Assembly: GCA_965205025.1 (NCBI GenBank)
Contig: CBDBFU010000032.1
Coordinates: 1 to 64,000, forward strand
Direction: 5' to 3'
DNA from: Candidatus Poribacteria bacterium
GTDB lineage: Bacteria > Poribacteria > WGA-4E > WGA-3G
DNA length: 64,000 bases
In this document: in pieces, positions 35,739 through 57,060 of the stretch
Layout: each line of letters begins with the position of its first letter
Position numbering within the stretch: the stretch's first letter is position 1
Made by a program: the position numbers and the translations under genes
The notes under the pieces: model-generated
The model's database searches: none
What the model was told of the DNA's origin: nothing
The model's input: the letters and a program-made list of their open reading frames with translations, nothing else

Positions 35739-36615
35739 CCTCGTTGATATTTGACATATTAATTAGGTCAAAAGGGATTCCATCTTCTCTTGCTAATCGA
35801 TATAGAGCAAGTTTACATTTTTCAATATCTCGCATCCAAATCCCAAGTTGAGATTTGGCTTCCAATTCGACATAGTACTGATCTCTGTTTAAGCTACCAG
35901 GTCGAAGATTTTCCATTATATTGAGATAGGTTTCGTATTCGTTCTTTTCTATAGGGACACCTAACTCAATCTTTTCCATAAAATCAGCAACTATATGAAC
36001 ATCAGGTATATCACCGTATTCTTTGATAAGTCGTACGCGATTATATTCTGTCCATGCTTCTGGGTCTTCCTTTCTGATTTTCGCTACCGCACTTTGTTCA
36101 TCATAATAAGTTGTCCTGTGAAATAATGGTATTTCTTTTGTATCTGTACCCTTGATCGGACTCTCAGGAAATAAGTAGTTGTGAGCTTGAACAACAGCTC
36201 TTAGTTCGTCATCTGTTAAAACAATACTGAATGCCCTTTTAAGAGGATAATCTGCAAGGACATGCACCTGTTCGATGTCTCCGAAACGCTTGATGAGTGA
36301 TGCACGAAAGTATTCAGTGTATAGAATAAAGTCATCTGTATGTTCATAGATTTCATTTAGGTCAAGGATGACAGGTATACTTCCTATACTAAGTAGGTGT
36401 CGTGCATAAGCAGCACGTTCCACTGGATCTCTTGTCTTTTCCCAATCTCTTGGTACTCCGACTTCTAAATTCTCAAGTTTTTCAACAAAAGATGCAATCC
36501 TTAGTAACGGATCAGTTTCATGTTCAATTGGTGTCGGTGTGTCTTCCATTTCACCACAACTGAAGATGAATAAGATAATGGGTAACCATGCAAGTTGTAA
36601 TAAGTACTTTTTCAT
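35710..36615 (-). CDS. Uncharacterised lipoprotein with an internal repeat
   Basis: Lipobox IFSC; EYFRASLIKRFGDIEQVHVLADY repeats as EYNRVRLIKEYGDIPDVHIVADF. Confidence 0.8.
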   Translation of the reverse strand: MKKYLLQLAWLPIILFIFSCGEMEDTPTPIEHETDPLLRIASFVEKLENLEVGVPRDWEKTRDPVERAAYARHLLSIGSIPVILDLNEIYEHTDDFILYTEYFRASLIKRFGDIEQVHVLADYPLKRAFSIVLTDDELRAVVQAHNYLFPESPIKGTDTKEIPLFHRTTYYDEQSAVAKIRKEDPEAWTEYNRVRLIKEYGDIPDVHIVADFMEKIELGVPIEKNEYETYLNIMENLRPGSLNRDQYYVELEAKSQLGIWMRDIEKCKLALYRLAREDGIPFDLINMSNINEDGKACQSFG

Positions 36616-46365: not shown

Positions 46366-46433
46366 TGTATAACTCCCGAATGAATGTGTCACCGGCAAAG
46401 TAGTTAATCTCTGCCGGTGAAAACATTAAATCC

Positions 46434-46919
46434 CTAAGAACTTGTAGAACACTCATCATAAATAGACTGATTTTCAAAAGTACCACTTGCTACAGCAGAG
46501 GTATCAACTGACATCCTTCCGTTTCTATCTATCTGAAGAAACCTACTTGCAGATACCTCCTGAGTATCTACTGAAATCCAAGTCCACCACAAAAAACTCT
46601 TTTCTTCTGCTGTTAGCCAAAATGGTTTCTCTCCCTCTCCATCAGGATCCCTTTTTGTGAGCCAACCCGCTTTGGCAATACAATAACCAGAACCTGTGTA
46701 TGAATCACCATCTTGCTTCACTTTACCGTCAGCATAACTGATAGAAAGTGTGGCAGAAGCTGAATTGGAGCCACAAGAGGCGTAAGCAGTCGCCACAACT
46801 CTCTCATCACTGGATAGCGCTGATTTATTATCATCATCAGCATTGGATTCTTGATGGTTATAGATAACTATACCCAAACATAATGCCACTACGAAAGTGG
46901 CAAACATTACTTTATTCAT
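46434..46919 (-). CDS. Small secreted Ser/Ala-rich protein (module A)
   Basis: Start MNKVMFATF after AAGGA; signal peptide ending SNA; beta-strand-like pattern and cysteines. Confidence 0.8.
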   Translation of the reverse strand: MNKVMFATFVVALCLGIVIYNHQESNADDDNKSALSSDERVVATAYASCGSNSASATLSISYADGKVKQDGDSYTGSGYCIAKAGWLTKRDPDGEGEKPFWLTAEEKSFLWWTWISVDTQEVSASRFLQIDRNGRMSVDTSAVASGTFENQSIYDECSTSS

Positions 46920-47023
46920 ATTTTTATCCTTTTTCAATGAGGGTATTAAGTAAATAATGATGCGTGTAACTATGGATAACCCTCTTAATCCTGCTGCATC
47001 ATATTTTAATATATAAATTGACA

Positions 47024-47284
47024 TTCAATACCTTCGCCAAATATGGCTGATGTTTCATAAGTTAACCTAAGATGAAGTTAACCTAAGATGCTTCTTATCC
47101 AGTAGGAATCCTTGCGATTCAGATCAATGATGTCCCATAGCCTTTTAGTCTGTGTCCACCCATAAAGTCAACTGGTGTGGAATATGGTCTATACAGGAAT
47201 AAAAATAACTTCCGAAAAACCTGAAGTTATTTAATCCTGAAATTCCAGAACTTCTCTGAGCAATCGGTCTTACTCACTATGACA
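47024..47284 (-). repeat. ~250-bp conserved non-coding element upstream of module A, copy 1
   Basis: Blockwise identity to 49889-50130 (TCCAGTAGGAATCC, AAGTCAACTGG, GAAAAACCTGAA, GAACTTCTCTGAGCAATC, TTACTCACTATGACA). Confidence 0.88.
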
Positions 47285-47777
47285 AGGTAACGGCGTAAAG
47301 TTCATTCACCCCGCTGTATCTCCACCCCCTCCGCCTATCCCTATTCACGTCCCAGAGATACACTGCCCCAGTATCATCTCCGATCGCAACGTGAATACCA
47401 TCCGGACTATAAGCAACTGCGTTAATACCTTGAGCATCAGCAAAATTCAAACGCTGAACCTCCTTTCCATCGCTCGTCCACAAATGGACCACTACGGTGG
47501 CACCGCCGGCGGCGATGAACTTCCCATCAGGGCTGAAGGCAACTCCTTTAATTGCACCACCGATTGAGTGATGGTAGATCCTTTCACCGTCGCTAACTTC
47601 CCAGAGTTCCACATCACCCCCAGCATCTCCTGTGATGATATACTCTCCATCAGGACTAAAATCAACAGAAAGGGCGTCATGAGAAAGATTGTATAACTTG
47701 GTTTGAGCAATGATATTTTCAGCCATGCCAAACCAAACAAAGATAACCATTGTAATCCAAAAAAAGTTCTTTCGCAT
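47277..47777 (-). pseudogene. 3'-truncated secreted WD40-repeat protein
   Basis: Signal peptide and three WD40 repeats (FSPDG, FSPDG, YSPDG); ends at ELYAVT where the conserved element starts. Confidence 0.85.
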
Positions 47778-47832
47778 TGTATATCTCCTTTGTAAAAAAT
47801 GAAATCACCTTACAATTGCCACACGGCAAAGG

Positions 47833-48300
47833 TTAAACCATTTCTAATAAATTACATCACGTTTTCGATCTTGGTTGTATAATCGTACTTTGTTATACTC
47901 TCAATAGCGATTTTCGTGTAACTTCGTATGATCTCAGTGAGTTTATCCTGCATCTCTTGTAATGAAGTCAGAACAATTTGAAATAACTTTGCTTTGATGT
48001 CTTGCCATAGTCTTTCAATAGGGTTCAACTCGGGACTATAAGGCGGTAGAAAGAGGAATACTATATTCTCAGGAACTTGTAGTGATTTCGCTTGATGAAA
48101 ACGCCCATTATCAAGGACAAGGATATTCAGAGACGCCGGATACACCTTAGCAAACTCATCAAGAAATATTTGGAAACAGGTACTATTCAGATAAGGCATT
48201 TCAACGAAAAAACTTGTCTTAACTATGCTGTTTTTTTGGTCTGAATTACCGTTGGCACTTCAGTTTGTTGTTTTTGTCGCCTTATGTTTCTACCTTTCAA
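47833..48300 (-). mobile_element. IS630-family transposase remnant
   Basis: ORF 47852-48199 with VLDNGRFH and LPPYSPELNPIERLW; N-terminal part missing; end TAAACCATTTCTAATAAAT; other boundary approximate. Confidence 0.85.
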
Positions 48301-48488
48301 GGAAGATTGTAGATAGAACAATACCGCTTTGAAAACTGCAATGGATTCAGTTGTTTACTAATTTAAAATAGGTTTGGTAATACATCTAAAAGTATGTATT
48401 AAAATCACTTTATATCCAAGCCAAATTACAATACAGACTATATTTTCAGAATATACCTATTACTAATAGTATTTCTTAAGATCTCAAT

Positions 48489-48977
48489 CTAATGTGCTGG
48501 ACCGTCAGTTTGACTACCACCTGGCGGATATTTAACTTTCGATTTATGATTATGTGAAATATATTCATCATTGAAAGATGTGACAATACCAGCAAGAGAT
48601 CTTGACTCATATTCAGGTTCCTGACTACCAAACCCAGGTACATCAGTCCAAGTATTATAGCGATAGGCATTTGCAGTAAATGAACCCTCTATACCTGGTT
48701 CTCCTGGAGCGACTTCTTTTCGATCCTCTTCCAAATGTGGCACATTTGCTACAACATAGTACCAACTTCGCGTTACACCACCATCAATTCTTGATGGTGC
48801 TGCAACATCAGCCGATGCCCTTGCCATAAAAAGAATAACACCAAGTGAACTTGATGTACCATTTATTGAAGCAGAACAAGTAGCAGTATTCCTGGGGCCA
48901 GAATGTGTCAACCCAATATTCCAAACAAATAATAACGTAACAAAAAACAATAAAAAAGCCAAAAGATAATGTTTCAT
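48489..48977 (-). CDS. Small secreted protein (module B)
   Basis: AGGAGA RBS; signal peptide MKHYLLAFLLFFVTLLF; ATCSASING; no family recognised. Confidence 0.8.
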   Translation of the reverse strand: MKHYLLAFLLFFVTLLFVWNIGLTHSGPRNTATCSASINGTSSSLGVILFMARASADVAAPSRIDGGVTRSWYYVVANVPHLEEDRKEVAPGEPGIEGSFTANAYRYNTWTDVPGFGSQEPEYESRSLAGIVTSFNDEYISHNHKSKVKYPPGGSQTDGPAH

Positions 48978-48988
48978 TATATCTCCTT

Positions 48989-49774
48989 TTATTTTAATCC
49001 TAAAAATTCATACGGATCAATACCTTCTGAGTCGTAATCCAATATACGAATACTTTCTGGGGTTTCTCCTTCGGCTATTTTAACATATTCAGACGGCGTA
49101 ATGTCGCCTCCACCGAATGAATCCGAGATTACTGAGAGTCTTGAAGGTGATCCGTTAGACATATCATCAATTACATCCAATTTACTATATCTTACATAAA
49201 CAGTTCTTGGATACAATAAGTATACTTTCTGGTTGATATCAAATTTGAGACCGGTAATATCCCGTTCTCCATTATTCCATAATTTTACACGGACACGGGA
49301 TAAGATCTCAAATGTCCGTTGTCTACTACTTGGCATTTTTGCTACCCCAGGATTTTCCCATGCTACATCGTATGGGTAATCTTCAGGGATTTTTGGATAC
49401 GGTCCAAATCCAAAAGGAGAAGTCCGTAAATCACTCTGAAGTTTATTTTCATCTAATGGTAGACTCAGAGATCCATCATTTTGGGTTTCAACATTAGATT
49501 GCGTTTTTCTCTCTTGTTTCTCCCGAACTTCCTTAAGAAAACTCGTCCATTCATAACTCAATGAATCAGAAGTTGAATTAAGATATGTATCTTTCAGCGT
49601 TAAATCAGCATCTATCGGCTCTTGCTTTTCCTCCTCTTTAATTTTACTAAGAAACTTTTCATGTTCAAACTCACTTTGCTTGATTTCCTCCTTCACTTGA
49701 CGAGACCAAACAAAACTACCAACAGTAATAATGATACAAGTGAAGATCACACCAGTAATGAGAATACGTTGCAT
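48989..49774 (-). CDS. Uncharacterised membrane-anchored protein (module B partner, FGFGPYP family)
   Basis: N-terminal TM; SPFGFGPYPKIPEDYP, EILSRVRVKLW, YPRTVYVRY and GIDPYEFLGLK. Confidence 0.85.
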   Translation of the reverse strand: MQRILITGVIFTCIIITVGSFVWSRQVKEEIKQSEFEHEKFLSKIKEEEKQEPIDADLTLKDTYLNSTSDSLSYEWTSFLKEVREKQERKTQSNVETQNDGSLSLPLDENKLQSDLRTSPFGFGPYPKIPEDYPYDVAWENPGVAKMPSSRQRTFEILSRVRVKLWNNGERDITGLKFDINQKVYLLYPRTVYVRYSKLDVIDDMSNGSPSRLSVISDSFGGGDITPSEYVKIAEGETPESIRILDYDSEGIDPYEFLGLK

Positions 49775-49888
49775 TTGTTATTCTCCTATATTGGATTATT
49801 AAATAGACAGTATTAAGCAAATAATGGAGGCAAGACTCAATAATCAGTATAAGCAATTATTGAGTCTGCACTATTTCAATTTATCAAA

Positions 49889-50130
49889 TTCAATACCTAA
49901 ACTAATAATGACAGATTTTTCATAAGCTAATCTAAGTTGTTACTTGTCCAGTAGGAATCCCTCAGTTCTGATTGATGTTGCCCATAAAGAGTTAGTTTGT
50001 GACCCCATTAAGTCAACTGGCTTAGAATTTGGTCTTAACAAGAATAAAATCACTTCTTGAAAAACCTGAAATTACTTTTAATCTTGAAATCTCGGAACTT
50101 CTCTGAGCAATCCAATTACTCACTATGACA
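49889..50130 (-). repeat. ~240-bp conserved non-coding element upstream of module B, copy 2
   Basis: Blockwise match to 47024-47284; similarity stops right after ...CACTATGACA. Confidence 0.88.
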
Positions 50131-50383
50131 CCCATCAACTAAAACTTAGATAATTGGCGCAGCTATTGAATTGTATACCTTCCTTTTAGATATGATTTAA
50201 ACATATCTATCTGATTGGAGACTTTATTGACGCCACTGAGTACATTATGTATAACCATATCTTTGCCCTATAGCGTCAGTGGTCTCCATATATGTGTGTC
50301 AAGGTGTTGCCAATCATAGAGATCTAACATCATAAATACTTAGCAACGCTTGACATAAATACACCAACAGAAATATGACCTGC

Positions 50384-50429
50384 CTCTATAATTAAATGAC
50401 CCATGTTTTATACTTCAAAAGGTGCAAAA
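50384..50429 (-). promoter_or_regulatory. Putative ECF-sigma promoter facing module B
   Basis: Minus strand TTTTGCACCTTTTG-N12-GGTCATTTAATTATAGAG; same motif upstream of the ECF gene. Confidence 0.6.
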
Positions 50430-56186: not shown

Positions 56187-56936
56187 TTATTTTAAATCTA
56201 AAAATTGATATGGGTCAATACCTCCGTCAGTAGAATCAATTATCTTAATTCCTGGAGGGCACATCACTTTCTTTAAGTACACCTTTTGTTTCAATGATAT
56301 CTCTGAGAGATTTCCCGGCTTCTCTATCACCGGATACACCAGTTGCATATCTTTCCACGGTGCCGTCGGATCTCACTCGATCTTTCCATTCAACATAAAC
56401 AGTACCGGAATATTCACATATATCTTCCCGTTTATCATCGCCCCACCGAGTGAATGTATACCTTGCTTCCACAATTTGATTTGGACACGCAATAGTAATT
56501 CATGTGCTACAGTAAGAGATTTTGGGTTATCCCAAATATTTCTGTGCCGGATAATCAACTGGAATCTCAGGAAAAGGACCAAAACCGTTGAATGAAACCG
56601 GTCTCTTTGTAGGTTCAGGGAATCGTTTCTCTGTTGATAGACCTATATCATCATGTATCACCTCTTTCACGAACAAGTCCGCATTTTCAGTTCGGTTCTC
56701 TGAAGATTCTGTTAGATTTTCCTCAGATTTAGACATCTCAGGCGTTGACACCTTTGGCTGCCTATTTATCTGATCATTTTTCGACAAAACCAATTGTGAC
56801 CTAACATCAGTATCAGCAAGCTGCTGACTGAATAATGCTATTGAATGTTCATGAAAGAGGTAACACACACCAGAAAAAAGAACAAGAAAACATAACCCAC
56901 CAAGTATCCATTTGTTTACATAAGTTCTTGAATCAT
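56187..56936 (-). pseudogene. Frameshifted FGFGP-family partner of module C
   Basis: Pieces in different frames: MIQEL / NKWILGG...SFNGFGPFPEIPVDYP / HELLLRVQIKLWKQG...IYVNIP / GTVYVEW / PPGIKIIDSTDGGIDPYQFLDLK; homologous to 48989-49774. Confidence 0.85.
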
Positions 56937-57016
56937 ATTTACCTCGTTTAAATAATTGTCTCGTTATAGTAGTAAAATATCTAATGCAGTTTAAAATTAA
57001 AAACATCAGACACCTT

Positions 57017-57060
57017 CTATAATTAAAAGACATATAATTTAGAGGTCATAAGGTGCAAAA
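57017..57060 (-). promoter_or_regulatory. Putative ECF-sigma promoter upstream of module C
   Basis: Minus strand TTTTGCACCTTATG-N12-TGTCTTTTAATTATAG. Confidence 0.6.

Follow-up and report, generated by a model that had tools for sequence, protein, structure and literature searches.

The closest described counterparts of the repeat treated here are the Correia elements of Neisseria, for which promoter, terminator or processing activity has been reported, and insertion sequences (IS) such as IS701 and ISAba11, whose target duplications are typically 4-5 bp. The repeat occurs twice, at 47024-47284 and 49889-50130, in a stretch of 64,000 nt from a Candidatus Poribacteria bacterium, hereafter the window (positions 1 to 64,000 of contig CBDBFU010000032.1, assembly GCA_965205025.1; C32:1-64000 in the source genome, G000, which comprises 33 contigs and 5.66 Mb). 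A sequence-only reading of the window had noted that the two stretches precede two gene modules and had assigned them a common, sharp TGT boundary. It proposed either a transposon end or recombination site, akin to Tn7, Tn5053 or IS481 and fused to a portable regulatory leader, or a cis-regulatory RNA. The present analysis argues strongly for a different identity, namely that both are copies, old and in decay, of a miniature inverted-repeat transposable element (MITE) of about 280 nt, belonging to a family with a putative IS701-like helper.

This identification accounts for the repeat, does away with the supposed TGT transposon end and reveals that the WD40 gene at 47277-47777 is the stump left by a deletion. 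With it, an IS701-like IS and its MITE derivatives of 56, ~280, 310 and 413 bp are documented in the Poribacteria, an uncultured phylum of sponge symbionts; a full-text literature search for miniature inverted-repeat elements in Poribacteria found no paper.

Results

A dispersed repeat family with inverted repeats at both ends

On the minus strand, which also carries all genes near both copies, the two stretches align colinearly as homologues (77.9% identity over 213 nt, E 2.9e-36), as had been recognized at the outset. An nhmmer profile built from six full copies (profile positions 1-282) recovered ten copies on six contigs of G000 (E 2e-90 to 2e-26), together with eight copies in the relative G004 and two in G041. 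Six of the G000 copies are full-length, at 262-285 nt: the second copy of the window (copy 2, 49891-50168), two on contig C14 (C14a and C14b) and one each on C28, C20 (C20a) and C16. All six bear 15-nt inverted repeats at both ends, CAATACCTTCGCCAA on the left and TTGGCGAAGGTATTG on the right, which are reverse complements of each other and show 0-4 mismatches per end; the termini of the family read 5'-CAATACC...GGTATTG-3'. The list of open reading frames (ORFs) contains none of at least 60 aa inside either window copy.

The TGT is not the end of this element. Similarity among copy 2 and the five other full G000 copies continues for 38 nt upstream of the TGT and stops at the left inverted repeat. 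Across the three genomes, all eight full copies pass the TGT and seven reach the left inverted repeat, the remaining one being cut by the start of its contig. Truncated copies other than the first copy of the window (copy 1) are likewise never broken at TGT: those that keep the 3' part begin at profile positions ~47, 107, 131, 143, 148, 171 and 197, and those that keep the 5' part alone end at 89, 127 and 165. In C20a, C16, C28 and the loci L056 and L087, all with unrelated flanks, similarity halts at both inverted repeats. The common TGT boundary on which the sequence-only reading had staked itself beforehand is absent from the other copies and, since the real ends lie elsewhere, the comparison with Tn7, Tn5053 and IS481 falls with it.

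Copies are 66-86% identical to each other in a star-like pattern in which those of G000 and G004 are interleaved, and their alignment is evenly conserved along the length of the element, which fits neutral decay of repeat copies. Of 40 genomes from the genus, three (G000, G004 and G041) contain the 3' half of the ~280-nt subfamily, and matches in the others are confined to the first ~125-150 nt. The exact 24-mer of the left end is present at 12 loci in genome_contigs, a species-representative collection, all of them titled Candidatus Poribacteria; a scan of metagenome_contigs with two patterns from the interior of the element gave 0 loci. Two further copies, C20b and C13, are segmental duplicates of each other (91.9% identity over 638 nt, flanks included).

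An insertion sequence with the same ends, and sister elements

In G000 the MITE profile further matches a 1459-bp IS at its left end, at identical scores. This IS has eight copies on other contigs, differing by 0-2 nt (one is 1 nt longer), and its 15-nt inverted repeats are those of the MITE. Perfect target duplications of 6-7 bp flank six of the eight copies. Its single intact protein, of 451 aa, ends with a stop codon within the IS left end and carries a Pfam DDE_5 domain (E 6.3e-36, 124.8 bits against a cut-off of 27). The top NCBIfam match is to the IS701 family (E 4.3e-35), at a score below the curated cut-off: the three IS701 models give 121, 53 and 43 bits, against cut-offs of 170, 150 and 250. 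We conclude that the IS is active in G000. The earlier statement had been that neither a partner end nor a recombinase is visible in the window. Both exist: a right end is present in the window at 47026-47040 (minus strand), and the DDE_5 transposase with the same ends is encoded on other contigs. The passages of PMC8944449 consulted contain nothing on IS701 target duplications.

MITE and IS are homologous at their ends. Copy C14a is 68.8% identical to the IS over 128 aligned positions (E 2e-11) and matches it at 16/16 positions at the right end, and homology extends over the initial ~125 nt of the MITE, which correspond to the IS end coding for the transposase C-terminus. Furthermore, a 56-bp mini element (C29:51703-51758) consists of IS left-end positions 1-23 and right-end positions 1434-1459, which indicates that internal-deletion derivatives of this IS family do arise in G000. 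Both inverted repeats of the mini element have the same variant base, and its left repeat recurs in a left-end remnant at C12:50828.

Sister elements were found in genome G006. Nine of them are 413 bp long (loci L060-L068), differ from one another by 0-1 nt and have the inverted repeats of the IS without a mismatch; a tenth, of 310 bp, has one mismatch in its left repeat. Perfect target duplications of 5-6 bp surround eight of these ten elements, and the 413-bp element is a recently active sister MITE. It contains a nested hairpin repeat of the GGTTCGGTTTCCTAACCGAACC type.

Two IS copies, at C12:184774-186232 and C24:56931-58389, have no matching target duplication and each bears the other's flanks (ATATAA, TAGTAA), which points to recombination between IS copies, by inversion or exchange.

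The two window copies

Copy 2 is a full-length MITE of 278 nt at 49891-50168 on the minus strand (nhmmer E 1.8e-76, profile 1-282), aligning end to end with the five other full copies. Both its inverted repeats are degenerate: the left, CAATAGCTGCGCCAA, at 50154-50168 (minus), was located by inverted-repeat scan and alignment and lies 24-38 nt upstream of the TGT, and the right, TTAGTTTAGGTATTG, at 49891-49905 (minus), was located by alignment. Copy 1, at 47026-47284 (minus), is a 5'-truncated MITE lacking the left inverted repeat (profile 39-282, E 2.2e-62, with alignment), and its right inverted repeat at 47026-47040 is a perfect TTGGCGAAGGTATTG, an exact match that is the same as the right end of the 1459-bp IS.

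Most of the internal features first read from the letters were confirmed. Both copies contain TGTCATAGTGAGTAA (ending at 47284 and 50130, respectively), CCAGTTGACTT, GGATTCCTACTGGA and two ATGGG boxes. The tandem duplication reported for copy 1 is a 16-nt unit at 47059-47090, its units beginning at 47059 and 47075; it is private to that copy, appearing as a 16-column gap in all nine other aligned copies. The terminator-like hairpin is real and larger than had been claimed: in copy 1 it is an imperfect palindrome of ~46 nt at 47194-47239, identified by folding, with a homologue at ~50030-50085 in copy 2, and it has T-runs on either strand. Its folding energy is -16.3 kcal/mol in copy 1 and -10.2 kcal/mol in copy 2, within a range of -5.3 to -26.1 kcal/mol. 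A hairpin of some kind is found in all ten folded copies, C20a having only a short one after a 13-nt deletion.

The left end of copy 2 is touched by a different low-copy repeat, repeat X, at 50169-50312 (minus), recognized by its similarity to repeats beside C14a and C14b. Three MITE copies (copy 2, C14a and C14b) have repeat X directly at their left end, and it also precedes one MITE-less gene of the protein family described below. Its positions outside the window are C14:98453-98527, C14:126020-126087, C14:100536-100600, C20:~35990-36100 and C13:~157000-157110. It ends with a small palindrome, AGATATG...CATATCT, and at C20b and C13 it takes the place of the MITE 5' half. Upstream of C14a (C14:98300-98460) there are far more abundant short repeats, a 228-nt stretch giving 262 BLAST matches genome-wide.

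A further resemblance concerns the 3' part of the element. A 34-nt stretch over the RNase J start codon in three genomes, G013, G014 and G017, is 88-91% identical to MITE positions ~220-260, the match lying at about 1500-1540 of loci L020, L026 and L021, respectively. The match had suggested capture of a leader; in G000, the region upstream of the RNase J gene gives no nhmmer match at E values up to 10.

The junction of copy 1 with a WD40 gene

The upstream neighbour of copy 1 is a 3'-truncated WD40 gene of 166 aa at 47277-47777 (minus), with a signal-peptide-like start, three repeats and a partial fourth (Pfam WD40, E 9.8e-17). As the sequence-only reading had stated, this gene is cut in mid-repeat and takes its stop from copy 1: the TAG lies within the first bases of the element, and the final residues (...GVNELYAVTLS), read by eye, keep the repeat pattern as far as the junction. 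WD40 relatives in four related genomes have open frames of 316-1491 aa.

It had been proposed to look for the missing 3' half of the gene next to a matching opposite end. Neither such a half nor a reciprocal junction was located in G000, where no close WD40 paralogue was found, and the sole orphan left-end fragment (C21, ~126263-126294), which might have represented the lost 38-nt left end, precedes AT-rich unrelated DNA with no WD40 coding. A search for an orthologue in G004, G041, G019 and G046 returned none, all matches being at most 42% identical. The lack of a reciprocal junction and of the 3' half favours a simple deletion. The simplest reading of the junction is a single deletion running from within the WD40 gene into the MITE; it would have taken the first 38 nt of copy 1 plus the 3' part of the neighbouring gene, produced the apparent TGT boundary and put an element-derived stop codon behind the stump. 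The TGT edge of copy 1 is, on this evidence, a one-off deletion breakpoint.

The region separating the two modules is littered with broken genes, another being a 115-aa C-terminal fragment of an IS630-type transposase (DDE_3; PF13358, E 4.2e-18) at 47852-48199 (minus), unrelated to the MITE. Downstream of copy 1, the ORF list gives a 161-aa protein with a signal-peptide-like start and no Pfam or NCBIfam match at 46434-46919 (minus), the frame of which extends back to an ATG at 47024, 1 nt past the right inverted repeat. This repeat includes GAAGG, with an ATG 1-2 nt behind it both at copy 1 (47024-47040) and at a solo right end before C14b (C14:126397-126416); judged from this spacing, the right end of the element could serve as a ribosome-binding site.

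A family of membrane-anchored proteins behind the copies

The first gene after copy 2, 117 nt downstream at 48989-49774 (minus), encodes a 261-aa protein with an N-terminal membrane anchor, and the second, at 48489-48977 (minus), a 162-aa protein with a signal-peptide-like start, taken from the ORF list. Neither has a Pfam or NCBIfam match, and the best protein-atlas score of the 261-aa protein, 0.78, is uninformative. The 261-aa protein belongs to a family of ~250 aa (hmmsearch E 2.2e-99), itself without a match in Pfam or NCBIfam, that counts 15 members in G000 and is matched in all 31 sampled genomes of the genus. Paralogues are encoded on C14, C16, C20, C9, C29, C23, C15 and C10 and in the window at 56527-57033 (minus). 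Behind a family gene there is often one for a small protein with a signal-peptide-like start.

Five of the six full G000 copies of the MITE sit before members of this family, and in G041 a full copy lies 102 nt upstream of one. Family genes are further preceded by an IS copy in one case, by a solo right end in another and by the 56-bp mini element in a third. In front of eight other family genes, nhmmer --max detected nothing of the element. Visual comparison had suggested that the sequences preceding the three MITE-less family genes on C9 resemble the MITE 3' half and might be its native version; this was rejected, nhmmer --max giving E values of at least 5.

Orientation and distance to the next gene

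Gene calls were taken from our own ORF lists and distances are approximate. The next downstream gene is co-oriented with the element for all 20 copies of the ~280-nt family (10/10 in G000, 8/8 in G004 and 2/2 in G041); for one G004 copy this gene is an IS transposase, followed by a gene of the protein family. With the IS end nearest the transposase start counted as downstream, seven of the eight IS copies are also co-oriented with the next gene, as are 8 of the 10 elements of G006. Altogether 35 of 39 elements are co-oriented with the next gene, the 56-bp mini element, which is reversed, included; the copies are partly non-independent (C20b and C13 being segmental duplicates). The young elements alone give P(>=15 of 18) = 0.004.

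The distance from right end to start codon in G000 is 26-117 nt, and is 26 nt for C20b and C13, 33 nt for C14a and 42 nt for C14b. A gap of 26-42 nt leaves no room for a separate promoter, which implies that transcription starts in the element or crosses it. A promoter and terminator scan of 46800-50400 gave 18 promoter-like sites, against 14.0 +/- 3.2 in shuffled sequences. RNA-library contigs from two metatranscriptome studies, ~93-94% identical to the window, cover 48272-50048, a segment with both genes behind copy 2 and the element, and one of them spans the right end of copy 2; these are assembled contigs of a strain at that identity, which give no transcript start, strand or level and may include DNA carry-over, and the uncovered segments 46400-47185 and 47317-47971 are uninformative.

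Discussion

Several features that define a MITE are observed in the ~280-nt family: inverted repeats at both ends, a length of 262-285 nt, no transposase gene, dispersed copies and an autonomous IS with the same ends. The MITE may have arisen when an older relative of the 1459-bp IS lost its interior, and would be moved, now or formerly, in trans by the DDE transposase of the IS701-like element. Of the sequence-only reading, what stands is that mobile-element DNA lies before gene modules; the anatomy and the kin that it gave the element do not.

Several observations weigh against this identification. A target duplication is recognizable in only one of the eight full ~280-nt copies (C20a, 6/7 match), and at a decay of ~10% per copy more of them should survive. 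No empty site was shown; a sufficiently close genome was not found, the best orthologue of the gene after copy 2 having 52% protein identity. The interior of the present IS has no counterpart of MITE positions ~130-265, which means that the present IS is not the direct parent. Three copies have the same repeat X at their left flank, which makes it likely that some of the spread occurred by segmental duplication. The 56-bp mini element is reversed relative to the family gene 86 nt downstream, and a consensus scan found no sigma-70-type promoter inside either window copy pointing at the downstream gene. Finally, the placement of the copies is far from random and is unexplained by simple transposition: the five in six full G000 copies before family members correspond to ~1e-12 under random, independent placement before genes, and only one of the eight IS copies is so placed. 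The clustering before family genes could stem from a hot spot, from gene conversion or from selection acting on expression.

In another explanation, the repeat is a fixed, non-mobile 5' leader or promoter of the paralogous family, inherited by gene duplication and kept alike by selection or gene conversion, its inverted repeats being a relic. Besides the five G000 copies, the copy in G041 and the G004 copy that precedes an IS and then a family gene agree with such a leader, as do the repeat X shared by three copies, the lack of recognizable target duplications and the greater similarity of the elements (72-86%) than of the proteins behind them (23-38%). Against it, similarity stops exactly at the inverted repeats, and the spacers to the start codon are unrelated between copies. 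The similarities of elements and proteins are moreover discordant: the most similar pair of elements, C14a and C14b (86%), precedes proteins only 27% identical, whereas C14b and C16 have proteins 37% identical and elements at 76%. This discordance, with flanks unrelated up to the inverted repeats, does not fit co-duplication. Copies also precede unrelated genes, encoding leucine-rich repeat (LRR) proteins, a lipoprotein, a 987-aa secreted protein and a different 144-aa protein; eight family members lack any trace of the element, and independent events of the same IS family (the IS, the solo right end and the 56-bp mini element) have occurred before family genes. We regard a fixed leader as unlikely.

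A cis-regulatory RNA had been one option of the sequence-only reading. The hairpin that all ten folded copies retain could be a regulated terminator in such a structured RNA, of the riboswitch or attenuator type; one mismatched stem position is re-paired differently in two copies (A-T in copy 1, G-C in L055), and the element is present in RNA-library contigs. Nevertheless, the whole window gave 0 Rfam matches at gathering thresholds, and the RNAalifold consensus of ten copies reached -9.5 kcal/mol over ~300 columns with an unfavourable covariation term of +1.4. The two inverted repeats diverge independently, with no compensation, conservation is even along the element as in neutral decay, and a palindrome with T-runs on both strands cannot account for orientation. 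A structured RNA is consequently very improbable. As for a larger TGT-terminated transposon or recombination site delivering the modules, the two window copies do lose similarity at TGT, which is what had suggested it, but the eight full copies run past that point, no other truncated copy breaks there, conservation of the element does not extend to the downstream modules, and no Tn7- or IS481-type gene is among the ORFs listed beside the copies. This explanation is already refuted by the other copies and retains next to no credibility.

A decaying MITE family thus remains our reading of the two stretches, and its uniform orientation and closeness to start codons suggest that the element may act in the promoter or 5' leader of the next genes, or else is tolerated only in that orientation. 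A bolder proposal is that the whole IS701-like family, IS and MITEs together, inserts or survives nearly only one way just upstream of genes, and that the 280-nt MITE has been co-opted as a portable leader or promoter for modules specific to Poribacteria; we put this forward as a speculation that we rather doubt. The modules concerned encode membrane-anchored and secreted proteins, possibly surface factors of the symbiosis; were the proposal true, the element would rewire the expression of a fast-evolving family, and the portable regulatory leader of the sequence-only reading would be correct in essence. Promoter or leader activity behind the orientation and placement would then give symbionts a means to re-tune the genes of their surface proteins.

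With respect to known systems, the only likeness to Tn7, Tn5053 and IS481 is the chance TGT start of copy 1; the family differs from them in its CAATACC...GGTATTG ends and its DDE_5 transposase. The 1459-bp IS resembles the IS701 family in having a DDE_5 transposase and short inverted repeats, and differs in scoring under the NCBIfam equivalog cut-off and in a target duplication of 6 bp, occasionally 5 or 7. The ~280-nt MITE is most like the Correia element of Neisseria, with which it shares a small non-coding size, terminal inverted repeats, many diverged intergenic copies, an autonomous IS relative in the same genome and a 5' position able to alter the next gene. It differs from the Correia element in that its target duplications are not recognizable, its orientation is uniform (20/20) and most of its full copies in G000 lie before one paralogous gene family.

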